From IMG/VR virus record IMGVR_UViG_3300029841_000001, positions 1-64,000 of that record: a stretch of DNA of 64,000 nucleotides; one strand, 5' to 3'. Positions 1,879 through 63,354 of this stretch are shown here, one piece after another; positions within the stretch are counted from its first letter, which is position 1; each line of letters starts with the position of its first letter. The position numbers were made by a program, and so were the translations under genes. The notes under the pieces were generated by a model that saw only the letters and a list, made by a program, of their open reading frames with translations, did not search any database and had not been told where the DNA came from. The DNA is from a virus (lineage: Duplodnaviria > Heunggongvirae > Uroviricota > Caudoviricetes).

Positions 1879-3827
1879 TCTCCAATTAGCTGCATAAACT
1901 GTTCTTCATTGATAATTTGTACACCTAATGATTTTGCTTTCTTATTTTTACTAGAAGAAGATTCAATATCGTTGTTAATAAGAGCAAATGTCTTAGCAGA
2001 TACAGAACCAGACACTTTTCCACCATAAGATTCAATAACAGATTTTAGTTCATCTCTATTACTGTATTTCTCCAATGATCCTGTAATAACGAATGTTTTC
2101 CCTTGTAAGGTATTTTGAGTATGATTGGATTCATTAGGAATTTTAAATGTAAATTCTTTACTTAACTCAAAAACTTTATCCATGTATGTTATAGCAAATT
2201 TTTGAATATTATTACTTGCAACTACACCGATACCACCTACTTTAAGATTCCAAAAATATCCATATCCGCAAGAGAAACAATGATAAAATTTACCAAAGTT
2301 ATATTTAAAATGTTTAGCAATATCTTTACTTGCACTTTTACCAATCAGGGGTACGGAAAGTGCATAAATAAATCTGTCAAGTGTAGTTTCTCTGCTCTTT
2401 TCAATAGATTCTAATAATTTATCTACTGATTTTTTGCCGAATCCTTCAAGACTATACATTTTACCCTTATAATCAGATAGATGATAAATACTCTTAATGG
2501 AGTTTAACCAACCAAGAGAAATAAATTTCTCAAGTGTAGCTTCTGATAAATTATCCACATTTAAAGCATTTCGTGAAACTGCGTTGGAAAGTTTTCCTAA
2601 TAACTTACCTTGACAATCATCATTCATACACATAAGAACTTCTGAATCATTCTCTTTCACAATTTTAGTTTCTCCACCACAAATAGGACATTTATCTGGA
2701 ATTGTAATTTCTTCTCCGTAATTATTTTCAACTGAATCGCATTGTGGAATAATCATATTTGCTTTGTATAAATTACAAGTACATCCTTTTGTAAAACGAA
2801 ACTGTTTGAAGATACTTACATTATGAACTGATGCTCTATTAACAATCGTGCCATCAATTTCTACTGGTTCTGTTACAATTGTAGGTGTAAGAACTCCTGT
2901 TTTACCAATTGTCCATTCAATATTAATTAACTTTGTAGGATATGTTTCATCTTTCCATTTAAGAGCCATGCGACAATTTTCATGATGTGATGTACTTCCT
3001 AATTGCTTAGAAATCTCTTTATTATTTACTTCAAAAATAAGACCATCAACAGGATATTCGTAATACTCTGGCTTCATTTTTTCTACACATTTCGACACGT
3101 TAATAGATGTTGAAATATCTGTTAATCTTCGTACGGTTTCAAATCCAATACTATCAAGATAATCTAATTCTTCTGTTTTCCAAGTAAAAGACGGATGAAC
3201 CATTTCAAATACTACAAATGACAACTTTCTTTGTTTTAATATATTCAGATCGAGATTTCTAAGAGTTCCTGCCGCAAGATTTCGTGGATTAGAGTATGGG
3301 GTATCCAGAGTAGAATTAACTCTTTTAAATTCATTCCATGACATCACACATTCTCCACGCACTTCAAAAAAATGTTTATTTGGAATTGTCATTGGAATAT
3401 TATCAATAAACTTACACTGTTCTGTTACATCTTCTCCAATGATTCCATTGCCACGTGTAATTCCTTGAACAAATTTACCATCATTGTATCGAAGAACTAA
3501 TGTTAATCCATCTAGTTTATAAGAGCAATACCAATCGTAATCACGTAGAAATTTGATAATATCATTAATATCTTTTGTTTTATTTGCACTAAGCATTGGT
3601 TTACTATGAGTTACTTTTGTAAAACCATCAAGAACATAACCTTGTACTTTTTGTGTTGGTGATCCTGCGAGCGTAGTTCCCGTTTCTTTCTGAATCATCA
3701 TTAATTCATCATATAATGCATCGTATTCTTTATCACTCATAATAGGACTATCTTTCCCGTAGTATGCGTATGATGCCTTATTGAGTTCCTGGATTAACTT
3801 TTTCATTTTTTTAATATTATCTACCAT
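1875..3827 (-). CDS. ligA: NAD-dependent DNA ligase
   Basis: Adenylation motif CSYKLDGLTL (KxDG), Cys4 zinc finger (CPICGGE...CMNDDC), C-terminal BRCT-like segment (TFVITGSL...GGKVSGSVS), 650 aa. Confidence 0.85.
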   Translation of the reverse strand: MVDNIKKMKKLIQELNKASYAYYGKDSPIMSDKEYDALYDELMMIQKETGTTLAGSPTQKVQGYVLDGFTKVTHSKPMLSANKTKDINDIIKFLRDYDWYCSYKLDGLTLVLRYNDGKFVQGITRGNGIIGEDVTEQCKFIDNIPMTIPNKHFFEVRGECVMSWNEFKRVNSTLDTPYSNPRNLAAGTLRNLDLNILKQRKLSFVVFEMVHPSFTWKTEELDYLDSIGFETVRRLTDISTSINVSKCVEKMKPEYYEYPVDGLIFEVNNKEISKQLGSTSHHENCRMALKWKDETYPTKLINIEWTIGKTGVLTPTIVTEPVEIDGTIVNRASVHNVSIFKQFRFTKGCTCNLYKANMIIPQCDSVENNYGEEITIPDKCPICGGETKIVKENDSEVLMCMNDDCQGKLLGKLSNAVSRNALNVDNLSEATLEKFISLGWLNSIKSIYHLSDYKGKMYSLEGFGKKSVDKLLESIEKSRETTLDRFIYALSVPLIGKSASKDIAKHFKYNFGKFYHCFSCGYGYFWNLKVGGIGVVASNNIQKFAITYMDKVFELSKEFTFKIPNESNHTQNTLQGKTFVITGSLEKYSNRDELKSVIESYGGKVSGSVSAKTFALINNDIESSSSKNKKAKSLGVQIINEEQFMQLIGE

Positions 3828-26917: not shown

Positions 26918-27829
26918 TTAATGCATTTCCTTATCGGCTTTATGTAATCTCATTACATTATTATAAAGTTTATCTCCAAGCAATTTTTGATATTTATGTT
27001 TTGTTTTATCTCCGTATTCTTTATCTTTTTCCCAGAAATGAGGTTGCATATGTAAATTAATAATAATAGAAACATCCAATCTATTTACACTTTGTGGATA
27101 ATCAAAGAACAAACTATCATATGAACCTGTACAATGATGCTGATAATAATGTGCTATATCTGTTATTTCTCCTTTTGAGTTAACAAAGCTTTTAACAAAT
27201 GGTTTACCGCAATCATGAAGCGATCCCGCATAGTATAGTAAAGAATTATCTTTTAATTCCTCTCCAACTAATTTGCAATGTTGTCCAAGTGTATATACAT
27301 GATGTGGATTATCCTGGTTAAATTCCATATGTTTATCAATCCAATTTTCAACAGTATCCACAATTTTATAATTTTGCGGGAACACGATCCTAATATCATC
27401 CCATCCTTCAAACCAATATGGAGTATTCCAATTTTTATACATTCTATCAATTACTTCATATGGAACAATTCTACTTCTTGACTCATTCTGTTTATAGCAC
27501 ATATGAAACGGAGTAGCCATTATTATACATTTTTTAATACATGGAATATTTTTAAGTTCAGACAAAAACGCCCTACGTCTTTTAGATTTAATATTTGTTG
27601 CGTCATAAATTGTATTCTTACCATTTTTTAAATTATTTTTAATTCTTTTGTGCAATACACGAAATACTTCTTCGTTTTGATTTTGTATATTTTCATTACC
27701 AAATAATTCTTCTCTAATAGCATCTGAATTACAAATTATTGCATTAATGTCATCCGATAATTGTTTTGCATAAGTGGACTTGCCTGACCCAACAAGACCA
27801 ACCATCATAATAAAAATAGGTTTATTCAT
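26918..27829 (-). CDS. Polynucleotide kinase-HD phosphohydrolase (Pnk-HD-type end-healing enzyme)
   Basis: N-terminal P-loop kinase (MVGLVGSGKSTYAKQ, downstream D and R as in polynucleotide 5'-kinases). C-terminal HD domain (H..H...LHDCGKP...H). Adjacent to the RNA ligase. Confidence 0.6.
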   Translation of the reverse strand: MNKPIFIMMVGLVGSGKSTYAKQLSDDINAIICNSDAIREELFGNENIQNQNEEVFRVLHKRIKNNLKNGKNTIYDATNIKSKRRRAFLSELKNIPCIKKCIIMATPFHMCYKQNESRSRIVPYEVIDRMYKNWNTPYWFEGWDDIRIVFPQNYKIVDTVENWIDKHMEFNQDNPHHVYTLGQHCKLVGEELKDNSLLYYAGSLHDCGKPFVKSFVNSKGEITDIAHYYQHHCTGSYDSLFFDYPQSVNRLDVSIIINLHMQPHFWEKDKEYGDKTKHKYQKLLGDKLYNNVMRLHKADKEMH

Positions 27830-29144
27830 TTACAGTTTCCTCATATAATTCTTCTGCTTCTTCAATATCGGGAGTATCTGATGTATCTTTTGCAATACCT
27901 TCAACAACTTTAAATTCAAAAACTTTATCTTTAAAAGCAGTAAATGTTTCCCTATTATCAATACGGACGACTACTCCTTCTGCGATATGTGTCTTTCCAA
28001 TCTCATCCACTGGCATCCCGTCAAGATATTTATTTACTCTCATTTTTAAATCTTCTGGGGTTGTATAAATAAATTTCTCTAAATCTGGTACATGTTTAAC
28101 GCCTAATTTGTCACACCATATTTTAGTTACTTCCCAAGGGACTTCAACAACTGTTCCATCTGCGGTAGTCATAGTCATTCTATACACATACATTTCTGAT
28201 TCACCAGGTTTACATCCATATGAAAATATAGTAGTGTCACCGAATTTCTTTATAAATGCTTTATCTTTTACACTTTTATTTGAAACGGAACTCATAATAG
28301 GAGTAGACTCATTTACATATCCAACAATCTCATAAAAGATTTCACATCCTTCTGGTAATTTATCTTTTAAAATATCATGATATTTTCTTCTGAATCCATT
28401 GTCTGAATAATATCCATCATTCTTTGCCATATCTTTTAATACAACTCTTCTACTTCCAGATACAACGGAAACTTCTCTAATTGTCTTTGGACACATTCGA
28501 AATAATCTTCTTAGTAAATTATTTTTCTTGGTTACTTTTACAGTTTTCATTGTACGTGCAGATGTTCCATGCATTTTTCTTGTAATATAAATTGTATCTC
28601 CTGGTTTAAACGCAGATATATTATATGCAAGCTGTGCAGTATCCTTATGCTCTTCAAAAAATGGATACGATATAGATTCTTGTTTATATTTATTTTTCTT
28701 ATTTTTTGAATTAGGTATATTTGAATTTGAACGTCTTTTACTTCTTGGAATATATTTCTTACAAATCTCATGTCCTCCAAGAATTGTAATTTGATCACCA
28801 TCTTTTAATTTTGAAATATCAGTATATTTAGAAAGTGTTTCAACTGGTAAAACAAGTCCTTCTGATTTCTCGCCACGGAGTCTTATAGCGGTAACATTTC
28901 TTTTTTCTGCGTCCATATAACCGCCGATGTTATTACCATTTTCATCTTTCTTTCGCACAAGATTATTATCTATAGCAAATTCAATAGAAAGCTGTCCATC
29001 GGAAGGAAAGAATATTACTTTTTGTCCTTCTTTATAGCTTAAATCTACAATTACATTTTGACCAAATACTTCCGCACACTGTAATCTATCAGCATTACTA
29101 TGTTTCCTTAGACCTTTTAGCGTTGTTATATATGCACAATACAT
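27822..29144 (-). CDS. ATP-dependent RNA ligase (Rnl2/DraRnl-like)
   Basis: Adenylyltransferase motif I RKMHGTS (T4 Rnl2 KIHGTN); N-terminal extension upstream of the nucleotidyltransferase domain; 440 aa. Confidence 0.55.
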   Translation of the reverse strand: MYCAYITTLKGLRKHSNADRLQCAEVFGQNVIVDLSYKEGQKVIFFPSDGQLSIEFAIDNNLVRKKDENGNNIGGYMDAEKRNVTAIRLRGEKSEGLVLPVETLSKYTDISKLKDGDQITILGGHEICKKYIPRSKRRSNSNIPNSKNKKNKYKQESISYPFFEEHKDTAQLAYNISAFKPGDTIYITRKMHGTSARTMKTVKVTKKNNLLRRLFRMCPKTIREVSVVSGSRRVVLKDMAKNDGYYSDNGFRRKYHDILKDKLPEGCEIFYEIVGYVNESTPIMSSVSNKSVKDKAFIKKFGDTTIFSYGCKPGESEMYVYRMTMTTADGTVVEVPWEVTKIWCDKLGVKHVPDLEKFIYTTPEDLKMRVNKYLDGMPVDEIGKTHIAEGVVVRIDNRETFTAFKDKVFEFKVVEGIAKDTSDTPDIEEAEELYEETVNE

Positions 29145-33694: not shown

Positions 33695-34723
33695 TTAGAT
33701 TTCACCTTTAACTACTCTTTCATTTACAGAAGCTACAAACTCATTAATCTTTTTATAATCTGGACTATCTGGTAAATCGGTATTCTCTTTTGCGTAGTCT
33801 AATCTCTTTTCATATTCATCTACCATTTCATAAAATTCTGGAACAGGTTGCCTATTTTCATCTAAATATTTACCATTACGAATATCCATAAGTAAATCAT
33901 GCTCTTTATCTCTATAGGTATTGATTTCTCCTTTTTCAAGAATATCCAGGCACATCATATATAATCTAATCAAATGCATCATATGTTTACCTAATTTATT
34001 TGCTTCAATCGCTTTTTGATTGCGTTTACCAATCTTGCCATATGCTTTTACGATAGATTGCATTTCAGAAATCATACCAGAATAATCTCTTAGAGGATAA
34101 TGTGTTAAATTCACATCCATAAAAATTTCCGTATCATATCCCTCTTGAACTGCTTTATCAATATATAATTTAATCGCATCATCTGGCATTGTAAAATGTT
34201 TTTGTTTAAAGTCAAACATTGCATGATCAATTGTCTTAAAGATATGTTCTTCGTTTTTAGCCTGTCCAACTAATCTATTTGACTTATTCTCCAACCTACG
34301 GAGCTGCTGATTAGCATAGCCACCAAAAGAATAAATTGCTTTCTTCGATAGAAATAAATCTTTATTATAAATAAATTCTCTACCAATTGGCGATACATAG
34401 AAATAATGTTCTGGTTTATTACCGAGCATTTCAATTGTGTTAGGATTACAATTGCATAACAGTGAAATCAATTTATTAAACGCATAAATGGTTGTATCTG
34501 TTTTTTCATTTACAAATTGCTCAAAATTTTCATTCGTAAGAATTTGCATTTTACTATTCAATGCACATCCTCTAATATCCAGATCACTTGTTTCTGTATT
34601 TGTACCATAAGCATGACTTCCACCAAGTGTAAGAATAATAATATTATTACCTAAATTCTTATCTTTTCGTAAGAAATCGTATTCTTTACTTCTTAATTTC
34701 TCTTTAATCTGCTCTATTGTCAT
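33695..34723 (-). CDS. Pol-beta-superfamily nucleotidyltransferase
   Basis: LTLGGSHAYGTNTETSDLDIRG matches hG[GS]-x9-13-[DE]h[DE]h; 342 aa with a helical C-terminal domain. Confidence 0.5.
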   Translation of the reverse strand: MTIEQIKEKLRSKEYDFLRKDKNLGNNIIILTLGGSHAYGTNTETSDLDIRGCALNSKMQILTNENFEQFVNEKTDTTIYAFNKLISLLCNCNPNTIEMLGNKPEHYFYVSPIGREFIYNKDLFLSKKAIYSFGGYANQQLRRLENKSNRLVGQAKNEEHIFKTIDHAMFDFKQKHFTMPDDAIKLYIDKAVQEGYDTEIFMDVNLTHYPLRDYSGMISEMQSIVKAYGKIGKRNQKAIEANKLGKHMMHLIRLYMMCLDILEKGEINTYRDKEHDLLMDIRNGKYLDENRQPVPEFYEMVDEYEKRLDYAKENTDLPDSPDYKKINEFVASVNERVVKGEI

Positions 34724-38012: not shown

Positions 38013-39113
38013 TTATCTTAAATCTACATCATTTCGGGTTTCTCCATCAGAATAATAAATATTCCAATCATTAAATAAATTTATAAGCAAATCATTATCC
38101 CATTTGTCATATTCATTACAATGGGTAATTGCAATTGATTTTGTATTTCCAAAATCTCCAATATCATCAGAACATCTATTATATAGTTCTCTTAGATTAA
38201 GATGTCCATATCTTAATATATCTTGAAAAGGATTTGGAACATTTGTTTTATCATACATATATTCGTTAATAAAATTTTTATTGCATTCTGATGGAAATTT
38301 CCCTGCGCCATGTCTTGTTAAATAAGTACGAGATACATAACAAGTTTCAATATTTATATCATCATTCCATTCAATATTTTCAATTATTTTCTTGGGATTT
38401 TTAATTCCAGTGTTAGATGGGGTAAGATGTGGAAAATAATCAATATTATTTTGATCAAGTAAAAGCCCTTGTGCTGCTTCAAAAATAATATTGTCATACT
38501 GATTTAAGAAATATTCATCTGAAATACACAATGAATGGCTATTCATAAAATCCAAGTCTTCTAAGAAATGTTCAAATATACCATTATCAAAAAAGATTTT
38601 CAACCATTCGCCTGATAATTCAATGTCCTCCTTTTTAAATTGTTCCAAATAGTATTCTTTAATATTGTAATCTAAATCAGTTACACCAGCTCTATATCTT
38701 TTAATTGTCTCAAAAACCCCTAATCCACAACTACCATGTTTATTTTTACCACGGCTTTCCTCAACGATTTGATTAGCTATCATATCAAATGGAGTTGTTA
38801 TCATGCAATTTTGATTAATATATACATTTAGATTATGATTAAGTTTTACTAACTCATCATATTCTTGTTTAAAAATAATTGGATTAAGAATAAAATCCTC
38901 AGATAAATATGTACTTGCGTTATTAAATGTACCTGATCCAAAATGATGAAAGACATGTCTAATTGCAGTTGGCGTTGTTACAGTATGTCCTCTTTGCGCT
39001 CCACCATTTGAACACACAACAATGCTATTGGATTTTTGCGAAAAATAATCTGTCATCAAGCCCTTTCCTTCATCCCCAAAATTTGCTCCAATTACAATCT
39101 TAATGTCTTTCAT
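38013..39113 (-). CDS. Adenylosuccinate-synthetase-like enzyme (PurA family; PurZ candidate)
   Basis: GANFGDEGKGLMTD (PurA GDEGKGK P-loop) and NGGAQRGHTV (PurA GG.NAGHT). 366 aa is shorter than cellular PurA and within the phage PurZ range. Confidence 0.55.
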   Translation of the reverse strand: MKDIKIVIGANFGDEGKGLMTDYFSQKSNSIVVCSNGGAQRGHTVTTPTAIRHVFHHFGSGTFNNASTYLSEDFILNPIIFKQEYDELVKLNHNLNVYINQNCMITTPFDMIANQIVEESRGKNKHGSCGLGVFETIKRYRAGVTDLDYNIKEYYLEQFKKEDIELSGEWLKIFFDNGIFEHFLEDLDFMNSHSLCISDEYFLNQYDNIIFEAAQGLLLDQNNIDYFPHLTPSNTGIKNPKKIIENIEWNDDINIETCYVSRTYLTRHGAGKFPSECNKNFINEYMYDKTNVPNPFQDILRYGHLNLRELYNRCSDDIGDFGNTKSIAITHCNEYDKWDNDLLINLFNDWNIYYSDGETRNDVDLR

Positions 39114-57324: not shown

Positions 57325-57398
57325 TGGAAATTATGGGATTTGAACCCATCATTAATCACAAAATAGTGATTTCTCAGTCCAATTTGAGCTAAATTTCC
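57325..57398 (-). tRNA. Probable tRNA gene with atypical anticodon loop (6 or 8 nt); no encoded CCA
   Basis: Minus-strand reading: GGAAATT-TA-GCTC-AAATTGGACT-GAGA-A-ATCAC-TATTTT-GTGAT-TAATG-ATGGG-TTCAAAT-CCCAT-AATTTCC-A. It has a perfect 7-bp acceptor stem, U8/A9, a D-arm with GG, a 5-nt variable loop and a canonical T-arm (GGTTCAAATCC). The anticodon stem-loop cannot be drawn with a 7-nt loop. Confidence 0.5.
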
Positions 57399-57517: not shown

Positions 57518-57655
57518 GAAACTACTTGACTTTTAATGCCAGACCAACTAAACTAATTAATAGCATTTCTGGGATTCCCGTCCCTCATGCTAAATCATTA
57601 TGTAAGAGGTTCTTATCTCATTATGGTGCGCCAACACCGAGATAAGAGCCTTTTT
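57518..57655 (+). ncRNA. Candidate small RNA on the plus strand (promoter-like element plus intrinsic terminator)
   Basis: TTGACT-17 nt-TAAACT promoter-like element at ~57518-57546. Downstream is a stem (A)GGTTCTTATCTC / GAGATAAGAGCC(T) followed by TTTTTTATTTT at 57598-57655. There is no ORF, and it sits in a ~500-bp non-coding gap. Confidence 0.3.
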
Positions 57656-57838
57656 TATTTTGCCTTTCGACTTTCTTATAATATAGCAAACATTTGTTTG
57701 TGTCAATACTCATCAGAACATTTGTTTGCATTTTTTTAATTATACCAAAAATTAGGTATAAATCCTATATTTACCATTGTTTATGTTTATATGTTACTAC
57801 CTTAGTATAGGAAATCGAGCGGTAATTTTTGGAAATTT

Positions 57839-58120
57839 TTATTCCAATTTTTTGATTCCCTTCTCCGCAAATAGAATAGTTTTTTCTTTGTTTTTATCAT
57901 GTGTTTTTAATGATGAAACAATGATGTTTCTATCATACATTATCGGAAATCCTGTAGATATAGCTTTGATCCCATGTGTGATGCTAATTGGAATAGCTTC
58001 ACAATCAGGAGATCTGCTATCTAAATCAAATGAGGAAAATAACACATTCTCTCCACCGTTTTTCTTATACTCAGTTAATAATTTTATAGCTTCGTCTACA
58101 GACACAATCTTTCCATTCAT
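57839..58120 (-). CDS. Hypothetical protein
   Basis: 93-aa ORF with protein-like composition; preferred over the overlapping low-complexity plus-strand ORF 57777..58139. Confidence 0.4.
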   Translation of the reverse strand: MNGKIVSVDEAIKLLTEYKKNGGENVLFSSFDLDSRSPDCEAIPISITHGIKAISTGFPIMYDRNIIVSSLKTHDKNKEKTILFAEKGIKKLE

Positions 58121-58179
58121 GCCAATTCCTCCACCCTAATCTTCTTTTTGCCAAATAAGTTTGCAAGGAAACATTTCTC

Positions 58180-58330
58180 TACCAATTCTCTTTCCTCTTT
58201 ATTGTCAACATTTCCCCATTTTTCTACTACGTCACGCTTGTCAATGGTAAAAATCTGCTCTCGTGAACTACCACGAAGCTAAAGACTTCGTAGCTTCTTG
58301 GGACTATACTCTTATGAGCATTTCATTACC
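58180..58330 (-). ncRNA. Predicted omega-RNA (reRNA) region at the 3' end of tnpB / right end
   Basis: Inferred from TnpB biology: the guide RNA scaffold derives from the tnpB 3' end and RE, and this region contains the RE hairpin. Boundaries are not determinable from sequence alone. Confidence 0.3.
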
Positions 58331-59680
58331 AAGCTAATAACCGTGTTCCACAGTCTCTTATATTCATCGCTGCATTATAATCTCTATCGTTTTCATATCC
58401 ACAATCACAAGTATACCATCTGTCTGATAATTGCAAATCTTCTTTAATAGTGCCACAACAATGACACATTTTAGAAGACGGAAACCATTTATCAATCTTA
58501 ATAAATTGTTTTCCTTGTTCTTCCAACTTATATTTCAAAAAAGTCCTAAACATTCCAAATCCATTATCATGAACATTCTTTCCAAGTTTTAGACATTGAG
58601 CCATATTTCTTAAATCAATATCTTCTACTATAACAGCGTCATATTCGCCAGCTATTCTTCTCGATTCTTGGTGTAACCAATTAAGTCTTTGATTTGCAAT
58701 ATGTCTTTGTAATGTTGTAATTTTTTGTTTTTGTTTATACCAGTTTTTAGATTTAAGTTTTTTTCTTGACAATCCTCTTTGGATTTTTTTTAATTTTTCT
58801 TCTGATTTCCTATAATAGTGAGGATAATTGGCTTTCTTACCATTGCTATCAACATAGAAATCATGTTGAGAATAATCTAATCCAAGAACTTTTTCTGATT
58901 TCTTTGATTCAATATCAATTACATATTTAACACATAAACTGACATAAAATACACCCTTATTATCCATTGAAACAGTACAATTCTTAATAATTGAATTATT
59001 TGGCAATGGACGATGTTGTTTTACTTTAATCAATGTTTTAAGTTTTGGAATTTTTAACATAGAATTTTCCAATGTAATTAAATTCCATTTTTCACCTTGT
59101 GACTGATTATATGTTCTATATGAAAAATCATTGTTCTTAATACTCTTAAATCTTGGCATTCCTTTTAAGTCTCTGAAAGTAAGTTTAATTCCTAATGTCT
59201 TTTCTCTTTTTCGACTGCTTTTGGTATATGTCTTTTTATCATATTCTGTATTAAATTTTTTAATGGCATTATTAAAATCCATTTTTGCACTTGATAAACA
59301 CTGAGCATCAACATTTTTCATATAATCAAACTGTCTTGAAAAATCAGTATATTTACTCAAATGCAATTCCGATTTTTTAATTATTCCATTCTGATAACTA
59401 GACTCTTCGAGTTTTCTATATAACTCATCAACATACATATTGTATATTTTTCTTGCACAACCAAATGATTGTAAGAAAAACTCTTTCTGATCTTTAGTTG
59501 GAGCAATTTTAAACTTATAACCTCGATTAATGATAGTTTCCATCGTCTCACCACCTTTCTATGGATATTTTAGTTCCTACATATTTTTCTTTGATTTATT
59601 CTTCTTTATGTTGGTATATTCTCTATTCACATTCATTCACTAGGCTAAAGACCTAGTGGATTTCTGCTCTAGAAGTTTTA
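58260..59680 (-). mobile_element. IS200/IS605-family (IS1341-type, tnpB-only) insertion sequence with subterminal hairpins
   Basis: Intact TnpB ORF flanked by two hairpins in the same orientation with identical CTAAAGA loops and different, compensatory stems: ACGAAG/CTTCGT at 58273-58291 and CACTAGG/CCTAGTG at 59638-59658. This is typical of IS200/IS605 LE/RE structures. The element ends are approximate. Confidence 0.6.
58326..59543 (-). CDS. tnpB: TnpB (OrfB) RuvC-like RNA-guided nuclease/transposase-associated protein
   Basis: N-terminal OrfB-type HTH (GYKFKIAPTKDQKEFFLQSFGCARKIYN), C-terminal RuvC-III plus zinc ribbon CHCCGTIKED...CDCGYENDRDYNAAMNI; 405 aa. Confidence 0.75.
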   Translation of the reverse strand: METIINRGYKFKIAPTKDQKEFFLQSFGCARKIYNMYVDELYRKLEESSYQNGIIKKSELHLSKYTDFSRQFDYMKNVDAQCLSSAKMDFNNAIKKFNTEYDKKTYTKSSRKREKTLGIKLTFRDLKGMPRFKSIKNNDFSYRTYNQSQGEKWNLITLENSMLKIPKLKTLIKVKQHRPLPNNSIIKNCTVSMDNKGVFYVSLCVKYVIDIESKKSEKVLGLDYSQHDFYVDSNGKKANYPHYYRKSEEKLKKIQRGLSRKKLKSKNWYKQKQKITTLQRHIANQRLNWLHQESRRIAGEYDAVIVEDIDLRNMAQCLKLGKNVHDNGFGMFRTFLKYKLEEQGKQFIKIDKWFPSSKMCHCCGTIKEDLQLSDRWYTCDCGYENDRDYNAAMNIRDCGTRLLAW

Positions 59681-59689
59681 AATATTCTT

Positions 59690-59824
59690 TTTTTAGATTC
59701 ATATGCTTCTTTTCTATAAGCTAATGTTTGATTATAAAACAAATCTACAACATCCAAACGTCTTATTAATTTGTTCTTCTTGTTGTTTATTTGGATAAAT
59801 TCTATACTTATAAGCTTTTAACAT
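59690..59824 (-). pseudogene. N-terminal fragment of a second TnpB-like gene, frameshifted
   Basis: Reads MLKAYKYRIYPNKQQEEQINKTFGCCRFV, then after a +1 shift YNQTLAYRKEAYESKKR.., the canonical OrfB N-terminus. The frame runs directly into the LE hairpin of the intact element. No downstream remainder is found. Confidence 0.5.
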
Positions 59825-59864
59825 TACCTATCATCTTCTTTCTAACTTTTAACAACTTTAAGTT

Positions 59865-60161
59865 TTATTCTAACATAGGATATGGAAACATTATATTTCT
59901 CATTAATTCTCCTTCTTTTTCGTTTGACAAACATCCAATTACACCAAAGAAATCATTGTCTTGATATCCAATTTCTTTAGCTAATTCAATTAATTCTTTA
60001 CCTATCTTTTTCTTATTTCTTAAAGTAGGTTTATGGATCATTGTAGATTTATTGTAAATTGCAATAGTAACGCTATCTCCTGGCGCTGCATCAATCATTT
60101 TTTTTGCTTCTTCTTTAGAAACTGTTAAATATCCTTCAATCATGCTAATACTTCCTCCCAA
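59865..60161 (-). CDS. Small protein, possible MazE/AbrB-like partner of the MazF-like toxin
   Basis: 98 aa. GYLTVSKEEAKKMIDAAPGDSVTIAIYNKSTMIHKP loosely resembles a swapped-hairpin antitoxin segment. Overlaps the toxin gene by 22 nt, but lies downstream of the toxin rather than upstream. Confidence 0.3.
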   Translation of the reverse strand: MGGSISMIEGYLTVSKEEAKKMIDAAPGDSVTIAIYNKSTMIHKPTLRNKKKIGKELIELAKEIGYQDNDFFGVIGCLSNEKEGELMRNIMFPYPMLE

Positions 60162-60544
60162 TTAATATTTTCTCCAAAGAACATTGTATTCCAACATACT
60201 TTATTTACAATGTTTCTCTGTTCTTTATCTACAACGGCTCCAAGCTTTCTTTTGATCTCACATTTTTTATCTAGTGTATAAGGTTGCTCACCAAGAACCA
60301 TTGAGTATAAAGACAAACCAGTATCACTATTTGCACTGATACATCCATGAGTAGGAAGTCCAGTTCTTTTTATAATATGAGTCAAAGGCATGGCAATAAC
60401 TGTTGGAGCTGTAGTAGTCCCTTTTTCATTTCCCACAATCACATATGGACGTTTCTTTTTCTGCACAGAGCCAGATGGTGTTGTCATCTTAATCTCAGCT
60501 TCAATAATATCATATCTGTGATATTCATTTCTCATACCTTCCAT
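60140..60544 (-). CDS. MazF/PemK-family endoribonuclease toxin
   Basis: KRPYVIVGNE...VIAMPLTHIIKRTGLPTHGCISANSDTGLSLYSMVLGEQPYTLDKKCEIKRKLGAV matches the PemK/MazF pattern (RP..V..., PLT, TLDK); 134 aa. Confidence 0.6.
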   Translation of the reverse strand: MEGMRNEYHRYDIIEAEIKMTTPSGSVQKKKRPYVIVGNEKGTTTAPTVIAMPLTHIIKRTGLPTHGCISANSDTGLSLYSMVLGEQPYTLDKKCEIKRKLGAVVDKEQRNIVNKVCWNTMFFGENINWEEVLA

Positions 60545-60635
60545 ATATGTAACCTCCTCTCTGTTGTGGTATGTATTCCTTACCTTTGATAGTTCTTATT
60601 ATAGCGTGTACGCTAATTATTGTCAAGACTAATTA

Positions 60636-60664
60636 TTGCAAAAAATAAATATTTTTGATATAAT
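60636..60664 (+). promoter_or_regulatory. Sigma-70 consensus promoter for the XRE gene
   Basis: TTGCAA (60636-60641), 17-nt spacer, TATAAT (60659-60664); RBS GGAGGG 8 nt before the ATG at 60693. Confidence 0.6.
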
Positions 60665-60692
60665 CTATTCATCAAAAATTGGAGGGAAATTC

Positions 60693-60902
60693 ATGAAAGT
60701 AATTCTCAAAGAAACCCTTGAAAAGAAAGGTAAATCACAATATTGGCTTGCAAAAGAAACAGGAATAGCTGCATCTACTTTAAGCAATATGTGTTCAAAT
60801 AAAACAACTAAAGTAGATTTTGTTGTTCTCCAAAAAATATGTAATGCTTTAAAATGTGATATTACTGACATTCTTTCAACAGCAAAGGACGATGATAAAT
60901 AA
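60693..60902 (+). CDS. XRE-family (Cro/CI-type) helix-turn-helix transcriptional regulator
   Basis: MKVILKETLEKKGKSQYWLAKETGIAASTLSNMCSNKTTKVDFVVLQKICNALKCDITDIL is a classic HTH_XRE. The ORF track starts it at 60636, but the RBS supports the internal Met. Confidence 0.7.
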   Translation: MKVILKETLEKKGKSQYWLAKETGIAASTLSNMCSNKTTKVDFVVLQKICNALKCDITDILSTAKDDDK

Positions 60903-60923
60903 TCATCGCCCATACATATATCA

Positions 60924-61984: not shown

Positions 61985-62524
61985 TTACTTAACCTCAAAT
62001 TTAAGAATCATTTTCTTAACTCTATCAATTTCTTCTGTTGTATGTGGTGTTCCACCTGCGTTCATATCAATATACCACTGTAACACTTCTCGTTCTGTCT
62101 TTAAATCATTCACATTCAATTTTACAGTATGACTATTTAACATTGCTAAATCCGTATACTCATTGAAATATGATCCAAATACTTTGATTTCGTTATTGAT
62201 AAATCTGCAAATAGCAGTCAATCTTTGCAACCCATCTACACACACAAACTCATTGTATGCTCCATCTTGAACAGACCAATGCCATGATGGACAATTAAAG
62301 TATATGATATTTCCGCTTTTACCGCCTTTAAGAAAGAACTCTAACCATGCAATCTGCTGTTCCTCTGTCCATACATGTCCTCTCTGGAAATCTGGGTTAA
62401 GCTGCAAGTTCATATCTTCTTCCATGTCTTTTATCCATCTAGGAACTCTACTGATATTTACATCACATTGATAGTTACCATCCCTGGTAAATTGTGGTAT
62501 GTATTTAAATTTTGTATACTTCAT
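61985..62524 (-). CDS. DUF262 (ParB/DGQQR-type) domain protein
   Basis: NPDFQRGHVW ... CVDGLQRLTAI; 179 aa. Confidence 0.55.
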   Translation of the reverse strand: MKYTKFKYIPQFTRDGNYQCDVNISRVPRWIKDMEEDMNLQLNPDFQRGHVWTEEQQIAWLEFFLKGGKSGNIIYFNCPSWHWSVQDGAYNEFVCVDGLQRLTAICRFINNEIKVFGSYFNEYTDLAMLNSHTVKLNVNDLKTEREVLQWYIDMNAGGTPHTTEEIDRVKKMILKFEVK

Positions 62525-62544: not shown

Positions 62545-63354
62545 TTATTCCTGACACAAGTTGTTATACATCTGTTCTACTTTATCCAAATGCTTTTGAT
62601 CCATCACTTTTCCTGTACGATTAAGCATTAAAAAATATTTTAATATTACTTTTTTGTCTGATTCTTCAATATTACCAACAGATATATGGTGATCTTTAAA
62701 CGTATATTTGTCCATACCACTTAAATCACTATAATATTTTCCCATATACGGAAATCTATCTTCATAAAATTCTACCAATGCATTTAATCGCTGTTTACCG
62801 TCAAGAATTTCATATCCATATCCATATTCCATCCATTTAGATGTAGAATGATGAACTAAAGCTATTTTACCAATATCAATATTATTAAAAATACTGTCAA
62901 TTAAAAGCAATTTATCTTCCATCGTCCATACATAATCTCTTTGATAATCTGGATTCATATTAATACCGAAATTATAATAAGTGTGTAGTAAACTCTCAAT
63001 CGTAGAATTATTAAAATTTATTCTTACATCTTGATTCTTTGAAAAATTACTATCATTATGTTTGATTGCTCGAATATCCATCCATGCAGTAACAATATAT
63101 TTCTGATAATCATATGGACTTCCATAGTTATTATCTGTTGCGGTGCATAATAACCCATATACCTTGCCATCATACAATACTTCTTTTATTACAGATTTCT
63201 TTAAAGAACCATATATAACCTCGTCACCAATATTAAAAGAATAAGTTGGCTCATTAATATATTGTACTCGATCTTCGATAAATGATAACTCTCTATCTCT
63301 TTCTTGTTTTAATCTCTCTTCTAATGTTAATTCTTTCTTTGTTTTTCTTGCCAT
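62545..63354 (-). CDS. DUF262 (ParB/DGQQR-type) domain protein with N-terminal extension
   Basis: NPDYQRDYVW ... ILDGKQRLNAL; 269 aa; tandem with the previous gene. Confidence 0.55.
   Translation of the reverse strand: MARKTKKELTLEERLKQERDRELSFIEDRVQYINEPTYSFNIGDEVIYGSLKKSVIKEVLYDGKVYGLLCTATDNNYGSPYDYQKYIVTAWMDIRAIKHNDSNFSKNQDVRINFNNSTIESLLHTYYNFGINMNPDYQRDYVWTMEDKLLLIDSIFNNIDIGKIALVHHSTSKWMEYGYGYEILDGKQRLNALVEFYEDRFPYMGKYYSDLSGMDKYTFKDHHISVGNIEESDKKVILKYFLMLNRTGKVMDQKHLDKVEQMYNNLCQE

Follow-up and report, generated by a model that had tools for sequence, protein, structure and literature searches.

A putative repressor-gated MazF–partner cassette with an exchangeable payload in a large temperate gut phage

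The stretch of phage DNA analyzed here, a 64,000-nucleotide window (positions 1 to 64,000 of the IMG/VR virus record IMGVR_UViG_3300029841_000001), contains a compact locus of three small genes: a 134-aa MazF/PemK-family endoribonuclease candidate, which we call MazF-1 (60140..60544, minus strand), a second minus-strand gene directly behind it, partner-1 (59865..60143), and a divergently transcribed XRE/Cro-C1-type helix-turn-helix (HTH) regulator (60693..60902, plus strand). An earlier description of this DNA, made from the letters alone (the sequence-only reading), had seen a PemK/MazF signature in the 134-aa protein, and indeed MazF-1 matches the Pfam PemK_toxin model (PF02452) above its cut-off of 23.1 bits (52.7 bits, E 5.8e-14), also matches phrog_1936, a “MazF-like growth inhibitor,” and falls within the MazF/Kid/CcdB SH3-like barrel fold. 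Alignment to solved MazF structures places Arg32 and Thr55 of MazF-1 at the positions of R25 and T48 of the Bacillus subtilis enzyme, and across the MazF-1 family R32 is invariant while T55 is conserved in at least 90% of members. The catalytic residues, whose lack the sequence-only reading had named as telling against it, are thus present and conserved. Judged from these matches and alignments, the 134-aa protein is a genuine member of the MazF/PemK-fold family, and it is predicted to have RNase activity.

MazF-1 also carries a conserved C-terminal extension (residues 117-134; 60140-60193, minus strand). The tail, GENINWEEVLA, includes a motif, ENINWEE, that resembles ENIDWGE, the toxin-binding segment of Escherichia coli MazE near Trp73 (PMC3668371), and at least 90% of type 1 toxins keep Trp129 within the tail. 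The shuffle p value for this likeness is ∼0.005 when only the tail is considered but 0.16 over the entire protein, and MazF-2, a second toxin type described below, lacks the motif. The extension may serve for self-inhibition or for docking of the partner, or the likeness may be due to chance, and we treat it as a weak lead only.

The gene behind MazF-1 had been given as a 98-aa ORF overlapping the toxin gene by 22 nt. An ORF does follow MazF-1 on the same strand, but those figures stem from a mechanical choice of the first in-frame TTG as start. Six codons further on, an ATG at 60143 is preceded by a Shine–Dalgarno (SD) sequence, GGGAGGA, at 60153-60159 and shares the four nucleotides ATGA with the TGA stop codon of MazF-1. 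Because of this SD sequence, the ATGA overlap, the lengths of the homologues (83-92 aa) and the 1- or 4-nt overlaps found in relatives (see below), partner-1 most likely starts at ATG 60143, is 92 aa long, overlaps MazF-1 by 4 nt, and is translationally coupled to it. The claim of a cotranscribed downstream partner is borne out. The two proteins differ in charge, with pI values of 8.8 for the basic toxin and 5.9 for the mildly acidic partner.

The suggestion that partner-1 is MazE-like did not survive structural modeling. The predicted structure (predicted local distance difference test score, pLDDT, of 89) is a compact beta-alpha-beta-beta-alpha-beta-beta-beta globule that has no recognizable DNA-binding domain, and the swapped hairpin of AbrB/MazE proteins, which a fold prediction was to look for, is replaced in the model by this alpha/beta globule, without a disordered tail. 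A MazE/AbrB fold was rejected on these grounds, as the confident model has no such structural matches and the protein has no match in Pfam or among PDB sequences. The NCBIfam and PADLOC models match neither MazF-1 nor partner-1, the PHROGs profiles give only noise for partner-1, and searches of GenBank phages and PLSDB plasmids returned no match to it. A profile search with partner-1 found 405 relatives, all without a name, and its family comprises 82 clusters among 1.84 billion 50%-identity representatives, nearly all of them stand-alone proteins of ∼80-100 aa. No literature on the partner or the cassette family was found. A 2009 survey of MazF partners listed AbrB, ribbon-helix-helix (RHH) and PHD proteins and one unknown family, XF1863 (PMC2701414). 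On the evidence of the model, partner-1 appears to represent a new alpha/beta fold family, without a recognized relative in the collections searched here.

The divergent HTH gene noted in the sequence-only reading is present as a 69-aa ORF that starts at ATG 60693 behind an SD sequence, GGAGGG, at 60680-85, and matches Pfam HTH_26 (E 1.7e-16) and HTH_3 (E 2e-09). Two sigma-70-type promoters lie back to back between the regulator and the toxin, with their −35 boxes 9 bp apart. P(mazF) (60598..60626, minus strand) consists of TTGACA (60626-21) and TATAAT (60603-598) with a 17-bp spacer; it matches the consensus at 12 of 12 positions, is the sole 12/12 sigma-70 promoter in the window, and points into the MazF operon. 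P(xre) (60636..60664, plus strand) consists of TTGCAA (60636-41) and TATAAT (60659-64), again with a 17-bp spacer, and has a TG extended −10. It had been described as a perfect promoter and the best in the window; the elements are exactly as described, but the match is 10/12 and P(mazF) outscores it. Strong promoters equivalent to P(mazF) are found in the relatives L001 and L006, and more distant relatives have promoters that are as strong, with different palindromes.

Candidate operators overlap this promoter pair (60602..60644). Tandem CTAATTATTG repeats at 60613 and 60629, spaced by 16 bp, lie over both −35 boxes, and a palindrome, TAGCGTGTACGCTA, occupies 60602-60615 within the P(mazF) spacer and −10 box. 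Neither the repeats nor the palindrome has a further copy in the rest of the window. Among relatives the two repeat copies shift in concert, reading TAATTAG twice or TATATAG twice, which hints at a functional operator, and XRE would, by this anatomy, repress the cassette promoter. A strict co-variation of XRE variants with operator variants was considered and set aside, as it is imperfect and broken by L016. Two smaller features belong to the XRE side of the intergenic region. One is a perfect inverted repeat of 9 bp, ATTTTTGAT...ATCAAAAAT, whose arms are 11 nt apart (60651-60679, plus strand); it flanks the −10 box of P(xre) together with the probable start site and is a possible autoregulatory site. 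The other is the TTGCAA −35 box of P(xre), which is itself palindromic. A small divergent DNA-binding gene is found in nearly all related loci; HTH_26 proteins, of varying length, make up 24 of the 30 distinct regulators, and RHH_5 proteins 4.

The regulator gene ends in a hairpin (60887..60911) that holds the XRE stop codon in its loop and whose arms are formed by the last regulator codons and the sequence after the stop. A strong hairpin lies at the same place in 26 of 30 distinct loci (free energy −9 to −20 kcal/mol, median z −6.4). The stem arms vary together with pairing kept, as in GACGATAC/GTATCGTC, GTGGTGAC/GTCACCAC and GATAGCAACC/GGTTGCTATC, and the encoded peptide varies with the stem (SGDK, DSNQK, DGTK, DNTK). 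A K-D-D-T-K-like C-terminal end is thereby found in 18 of the 30 regulators, compared with 3 of 859 control ORFs; its reading as a shared toxin-binding peptide was rejected, since the stop-codon hairpin with its compensating stem changes explains it. The most plausible function of the hairpin is that of a terminator-like insulator, separating the cassette from the phage operon upstream of it; in this role it would block transcription of the upstream operon from reading XRE in antisense and from entering the MazF operon.

Related loci, ∼140 in all and with some 50 distinct toxin–partner pairs among them, were gathered through the partner family, the MazF family, and exact lookups. In the partner-anchored set a MazF-like gene lies directly upstream of the partner in 100 of 101 loci, and in all 100 loci with both genes the partner is downstream of the toxin, so that the reversal of the canonical antitoxin–toxin gene order seen in the window holds throughout. 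The converse is also found, with the partner following MazF in 42 of 42 MazF-anchored loci. In 97 of the 101 loci the ATG of the partner and the stop codon of MazF share 1 or 4 nt. The flanks are far less conserved than this pair, with 4 loci sharing the 214-aa gene upstream of it and 20 the 226-aa gene downstream. Divergence of toxin and partner is correlated (r = 0.76), with the partner outpacing the toxin in 82% of pairwise comparisons. Two loci, both genome-derived, are decayed (L097, 3995-4687, and L100, 2719-3414): one has a 52-aa MazF and its partner domain inside a 230-aa ORF, and the other has a split MazF and a shortened partner.

The pair is exchanged as a unit behind a constant regulatory region. 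In MT835469.1, a related 176-kb virome phage, the same place holds an XRE gene and then a toxin of a second type, MazF-2 (129 aa, 38% identical to MazF-1), which is followed with a 4-nt overlap by a different 92-aa partner gene, partner-2. The same MazF-2/partner-2 arrangement is found in 24 of 25 further IMG/VR contigs with the partner-2 family, the remaining one being short and ending before the upstream gene. Counted over the 27 loci with this family outside the window (L102, L106-L130), 25 have partner-2 directly behind an intact MazF-2. MazF-1 is always found with partner-1, and MazF-2 always with partner-2. The XRE proteins of L015, which carries payload 1, and L102, which carries payload 2, are identical at 68 of 69 residues, and the intergenic DNA of these two loci is near-identical up to the −10 box and diverges right after it. 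An exact search of IMG/VR with the operator/promoter string recovered 16 contigs with at least five MazF/partner types. The toxins of payload types 2-5 match PemK_toxin (E 1e-19 to 4e-32), and all payload toxins are single-domain PemK proteins of 120-142 aa without a secretion or delivery domain. Their partners, of 88-101 aa, have no match in Pfam. The partner types are collinear in alignment and have in common an N-terminal s-x-E-E-A-x-K helix; hhalign aligns partner-1 with partner-2 collinearly over the full length, but at only 6% probability (E 0.006), too little to establish homology. Thus the regulatory region is a fixed “socket,” and the MazF/partner pair is a payload swapped as a unit among related phages. 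Since toxins with no more than 38% identity share one XRE, that protein is not their specific neutralizer; the partner, because it changes with the toxin, can be. The type-specific pairing and the correlated divergence would fit cognate binding of each toxin by its partner.

The window itself retains the trace of one such exchange. A 2.1-kb block (57754..59863, minus strand), bounded by blastn junctions, is absent from the close relatives L015 and L016. It contains the TnpB element claimed in the sequence-only reading, an intact IS200/IS605-family TnpB gene (58326-59543, minus strand; HTH_OrfB_IS605 E 1.5e-10, OrfB_IS605 E 5.7e-20, Cas12f1-like_TNB E 1.9e-23), and, beyond it, a second, decayed toxin–partner module. 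Of this module's toxin only the last 46 codons remain (58117..58257, minus strand), matching the C terminus of MazF-2 from MT835469.1; in-frame stops precede them and the catalytic N-terminal part is gone. The stop codon of this remnant overlaps by ATGA an intact partner-2 gene of 93 aa (57839..58120, minus strand). The window is homologous to type-2 phages between 60918 and 60598; the match is lost exactly behind the −10 box and picks up again at 58260, within MazF-2. The window therefore has a type-2 backbone, in which, as the junctions indicate, the 5′ 60% of the resident MazF-2 has given way to MazF-1, partner-1, and the TnpB DNA. A dead toxin beside a live partner would be the decay asymmetry expected of a protective partner. 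Right after the partner-1 stop, upstream of the intact TnpB, lies a degraded N-terminal fragment of another TnpB (about 59650-59810, minus strand, recognized by translation as “YKYRIYPNKQQEEQINKTFGCCRFV...”), which is frameshifted and differs from the intact one, and insertion sequence (IS) elements have therefore struck the site at least twice.

The 3′ boundary of the cassette is set by the next sigma-70-like promoter, TTGACA-17-TATTAT (57678..57706, minus strand), which matches the consensus at 11 of 12 positions; in L015 and L016 its equivalent lies ∼45 nt beyond the partner stop. This promoter has no candidate operator repeats, which argues weakly against XRE as a master repressor. Together with a long leader hairpin behind it, GGCTCTTATCTC...GAGATAAGAACC, the promoter takes up 57600-57706 (minus strand); the hairpin is conserved in L015 and lies upstream of a tRNA-like gene. 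The tRNA of the sequence-only reading is supported in part: Rfam matches 57325-57398 (minus strand) with 39 bits against a gathering score of 29 (E 1e-5), but ARAGORN finds no tRNA in the window. The anticodon loop looks noncanonical, and at the equivalent position L015 has a normal-looking tRNA with a CAU anticodon.

The phage setting of the locus is borne out. Minus-strand ORFs of at least 60 aa cover ∼90% of the window, and the larger genes, among them NAD ligase, DNA polymerase, RecJ, a DnaB-like helicase, RNA ligase, and ribonucleotide reductase, have phage replication and nucleotide-metabolism functions. The cassette heads this ∼60-kb one-directional block of replication genes. As the sequence-only reading had it, the 69-aa XRE gene is the sole credible plus-strand gene in the 64 kb, the other plus-strand ORFs not being gene-like. 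In L010, from the same phage as the window, an integrase lies 3.5 kb upstream of the cassette; in relatives an integrase is often found a few genes upstream, and in some it adjoins the module. Related loci lie on contigs of 90-260 kb from IMG/VR viral contigs, metagenome scaffolds, and Lachnospiraceae, Clostridia, and Coprobacillus genomes, and one relative is integrated within a Lachnospiraceae chromosome. Lachnospiraceae bacterium A4 carries such a relative, one that can be cultivated. The carrier is a large temperate gut phage, and the cassette occupies a fixed position across a group of large temperate Firmicutes gut phages. Its interpretation as part of a horizontally acquired moron island is not upheld in the sense of a recent acquisition by this phage: the G+C content of the cassette (0.30-0.33) shows no compositional mark of recent transfer when set against the window (29.9%, mean 0.299), the module is a conserved, fixed-position feature of the phage group, and of the proposed island the 2.1-kb TnpB block alone is an insertion. 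The related claim of an independent unit driven by host-type promoters fares better, as sigma-70 promoters lie within the locus itself and a terminator hairpin precedes it.

Collectively, these features lead us to propose, with a probability of roughly 0.6, that this temperate gut phage carries a toxin–immunity (toxin–antitoxin-like) cassette made up of three parts, gated by a repressor and with an exchangeable payload. Host sigma-70 RNA polymerase would fire P(mazF) to give a bicistronic mRNA. The first product would be a MazF-family sequence-specific endoribonuclease, and the second, ATGA-coupled gene would supply a small acidic alpha/beta protein that binds and neutralizes its own MazF type. 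Control would fall to the separate divergent XRE protein (an RHH protein in some relatives), unlike in canonical MazEF, where the neutralizer itself exerts control; XRE would bind the repeats overlapping both back-to-back promoters and so shut the operon. Payload swaps would leave behind displaced toxin fragments and intact partner genes. The role of such a cassette is most likely exclusion of, or competition with, related phages and/or prophage retention; a role in conflict, which could also take the form of abortive infection, is favored because of the payload polymorphism and the orphan partner.

Several observations weigh against this proposal. Partner-1 resembles no known antitoxin and could be a cofactor. 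The TAGCGTGTACGCTA palindrome is not conserved in every relative. With a separate repressor there is no obvious replenishment of a labile antitoxin, and classical addiction fits poorly. UACAU, the canonical Firmicute MazF site, is not depleted on the phage sense strand (138 observed, 128 expected), which gives no sequence-level sign of self-protection. Finally, a promoter of maximal strength at the position that a Cro or antirepressor gene has in other temperate phages fits an early-lytic role equally well.

That last point leads to the most substantial rival, early-lytic host takeover, which we consider possible although clearly the less probable account. Here XRE would be the lysogeny/immunity repressor, and the MazF RNase and its partner would be the first early genes, the RNase cutting host or early mRNAs on infection or induction, as T4 RegB does, and the partner setting the timing or the specificity or guarding against leaky expression, and not acting as an addiction or exclusion antitoxin. 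The lone opposite-strand position of XRE, the nearby integrase, the placement of the cassette at the head of the replication block, the 12/12 score of P(mazF), typical of phage early promoters, and the relative integrated in a Lachnospiraceae chromosome all suit this view. However, the next genes have a strong promoter of their own without the candidate operator repeats, so that XRE control of the early region is not visible; rapid payload exchange and a kept orphan partner suit conflict or immunity better than a housekeeping early function; and the undepleted UACAU, which tells little by itself, weighs lightly against takeover as well. The early-lytic and conflict roles share the same molecular mechanism. 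A more specific and more speculative version of the conflict role, to which we give only limited credence, makes the locus an exclusion-type determinant, by which co-circulating phages would fight each other with interchangeable MazF/immunity pairs in one immunity-region socket. A prophage or an incoming phage that expresses one toxin type would disable cells or rivals without the matching partner, orphan partners such as partner-2 would be kept as cross-immunity, and the 88-101-aa partners would form a new MazF-inhibitor superfamily with a fold unseen among antitoxins. Were this true, the locus would be an intracellular, phage-borne counterpart of the bacterial polymorphic toxin systems.

The remaining alternatives assign different parts to the two smaller proteins. 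Co-occurrence, coupling, and co-variation would be expected equally of a heteromer, and the partner might thus be an obligate subunit of a nuclease built from two proteins, for example one that activates it or sets its specificity. We think this unlikely: the MazF enzymes of E. coli, B. subtilis, and Staphylococcus aureus are active homodimers that need no cofactor, and an intact orphan partner beside a decapitated toxin makes sense for a protector, not for the subunit of a dead enzyme. More improbable still is that the XRE or RHH protein is the real antitoxin, combining a DNA-binding domain with a C-terminal toxin-binding tail, and that the 92-aa protein is accessory. The K-D-D-T-K-like end recurs across unrelated DNA-binding folds, and XRE and RHH domains are common as the DNA-binding domains of antitoxins (PMC2701414), but the stop-codon hairpin accounts for the tail, a near-identical XRE serves strongly diverged MazF types, and divergent transcription provides no stoichiometric coupling to the toxin. 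Least credible of all is a canonical MazEF system in reversed order with a diverged MazE/AbrB antitoxin as partner; the small size and MazF neighbor of partner-1 are as expected, whereas its model is a globule and not a swapped-hairpin barrel with a disordered tail, and it lacks any Pfam or PDB sequence match.

Comparison with known systems reveals both shared elements and differences from our proposed toxin–immunity cassette. The protein neutralizers known for MazF toxins, which rank with the most thoroughly studied RNases of bacteria, are DNA-binding antitoxins encoded upstream. The cassette has in common with MazEF and PemIK (Kid-Kis) the MazF/Kid fold, the catalytic Arg and Thr, the two-gene operon, and a basic toxin with an acidic partner. 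In contrast, its gene order is reversed, its partner is a folded globule without an AbrB or RHH domain or similarity to MazE or PemI, and its transcription would be left to a separate divergent repressor; this architecture probably argues against antitoxin or toxin–antitoxin autoregulation as in MazEF. A toxin gene ahead of its neutralizer in one operon, the order proposed for the cassette, is also seen in HigBA, MqsRA, and HicAB, but there the HTH antitoxin is the repressor, whereas the cassette partner has no recognizable DNA-binding domain. The omega-epsilon-zeta and PaaR2-PaaA2-ParE2 systems separate the DNA-binding regulator from a non-DNA-binding neutralizer, as the cassette would under our proposal. 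The cassette regulator differs in being divergent, with its own promoter, and in being exchanged independently of the toxin type, and the cassette toxin is a MazF and not a zeta or ParE protein.

Phage and polymorphic-toxin loci offer further parallels. In the immI region of phage P22 (mnt, Pant–arc–ant), a small maintenance repressor is divergent from a very strong promoter, Pant, which drives two small genes that are harmful to the lysogen if uncontrolled. The layout is like that of the cassette, although the payload is an RNase and partner in one and an antirepressor and regulator in the other, and no sequence relationship is known. As in the polymorphic toxin loci (contact-dependent inhibition, CDI, cdiA-CT/cdiI, and Rhs), many divergent toxin/immunity pairs occupy one conserved locus, and a displaced toxin 3′ fragment with an intact immunity gene lies downstream of the active pair. 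Unlike those loci, the cassette has no delivery domain, exchanges the whole toxin gene and not a C-terminal tip, and has a toxin that would act inside the producing cell. For a phage early RNase with a toxin–antitoxin-toxin fold there is a precedent in T4 RegB, although that enzyme is RelE/YoeB-like and comes without a partner or repressor of its own.

The locus thus supplies unannotated globular candidate neutralizers of at least five cognate types, and a different regulatory logic, in which a host promoter of perfect consensus is combined with a separate putative repressor and a hairpin as probable insulator. Swapped toxin–partner pairs behind one regulatory region, together with an orphan partner, form an arms-race pattern, and the carriers are abundant, uncultured phages of human-gut Firmicutes. 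If confirmed, the partners would provide a new MazF inhibitor fold and the pairs natural orthogonal toxin–inhibitor combinations for use as genetic tools, and the cassette would be a testable case of RNase-mediated phage–phage or phage–host competition.

Other features of the window and its relatives deserve mention. RNA ligase (phrog_968) and nucleotidyltransferase (phrog_388) genes are encoded at 27822-29144 and 33695-34723 (both minus strand), and in L011 a Tpt1-type RNA 2′-phosphotransferase (PTS_2-RNA; 3056-3595) lies close to the cassette; together these could be an RNA-repair toolkit, of interest beside a phage-borne RNase. Upstream of the cassette, a GmrSD_N/DUF262 (ParB-like nuclease) pair (61985-62524 and 62545-63354, both minus strand) has weak PADLOC matches to NsnA and PD-T4-2_A, and homologues of the pair lie beside the cassette in 24 related loci. 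The pentamers CGAAC and GTTCG are nearly missing from the window (0 and 1 observed, ∼11.6 expected; z ∼−3.6, both strands), which could reflect restriction-site avoidance. A 366-aa protein (38013-39113, minus strand) matches phrog_1211, a PurZ-type adenylosuccinate synthetase (E 2.7e-63), a hint that the phage may substitute 2-aminoadenine for adenine (Z-genome).

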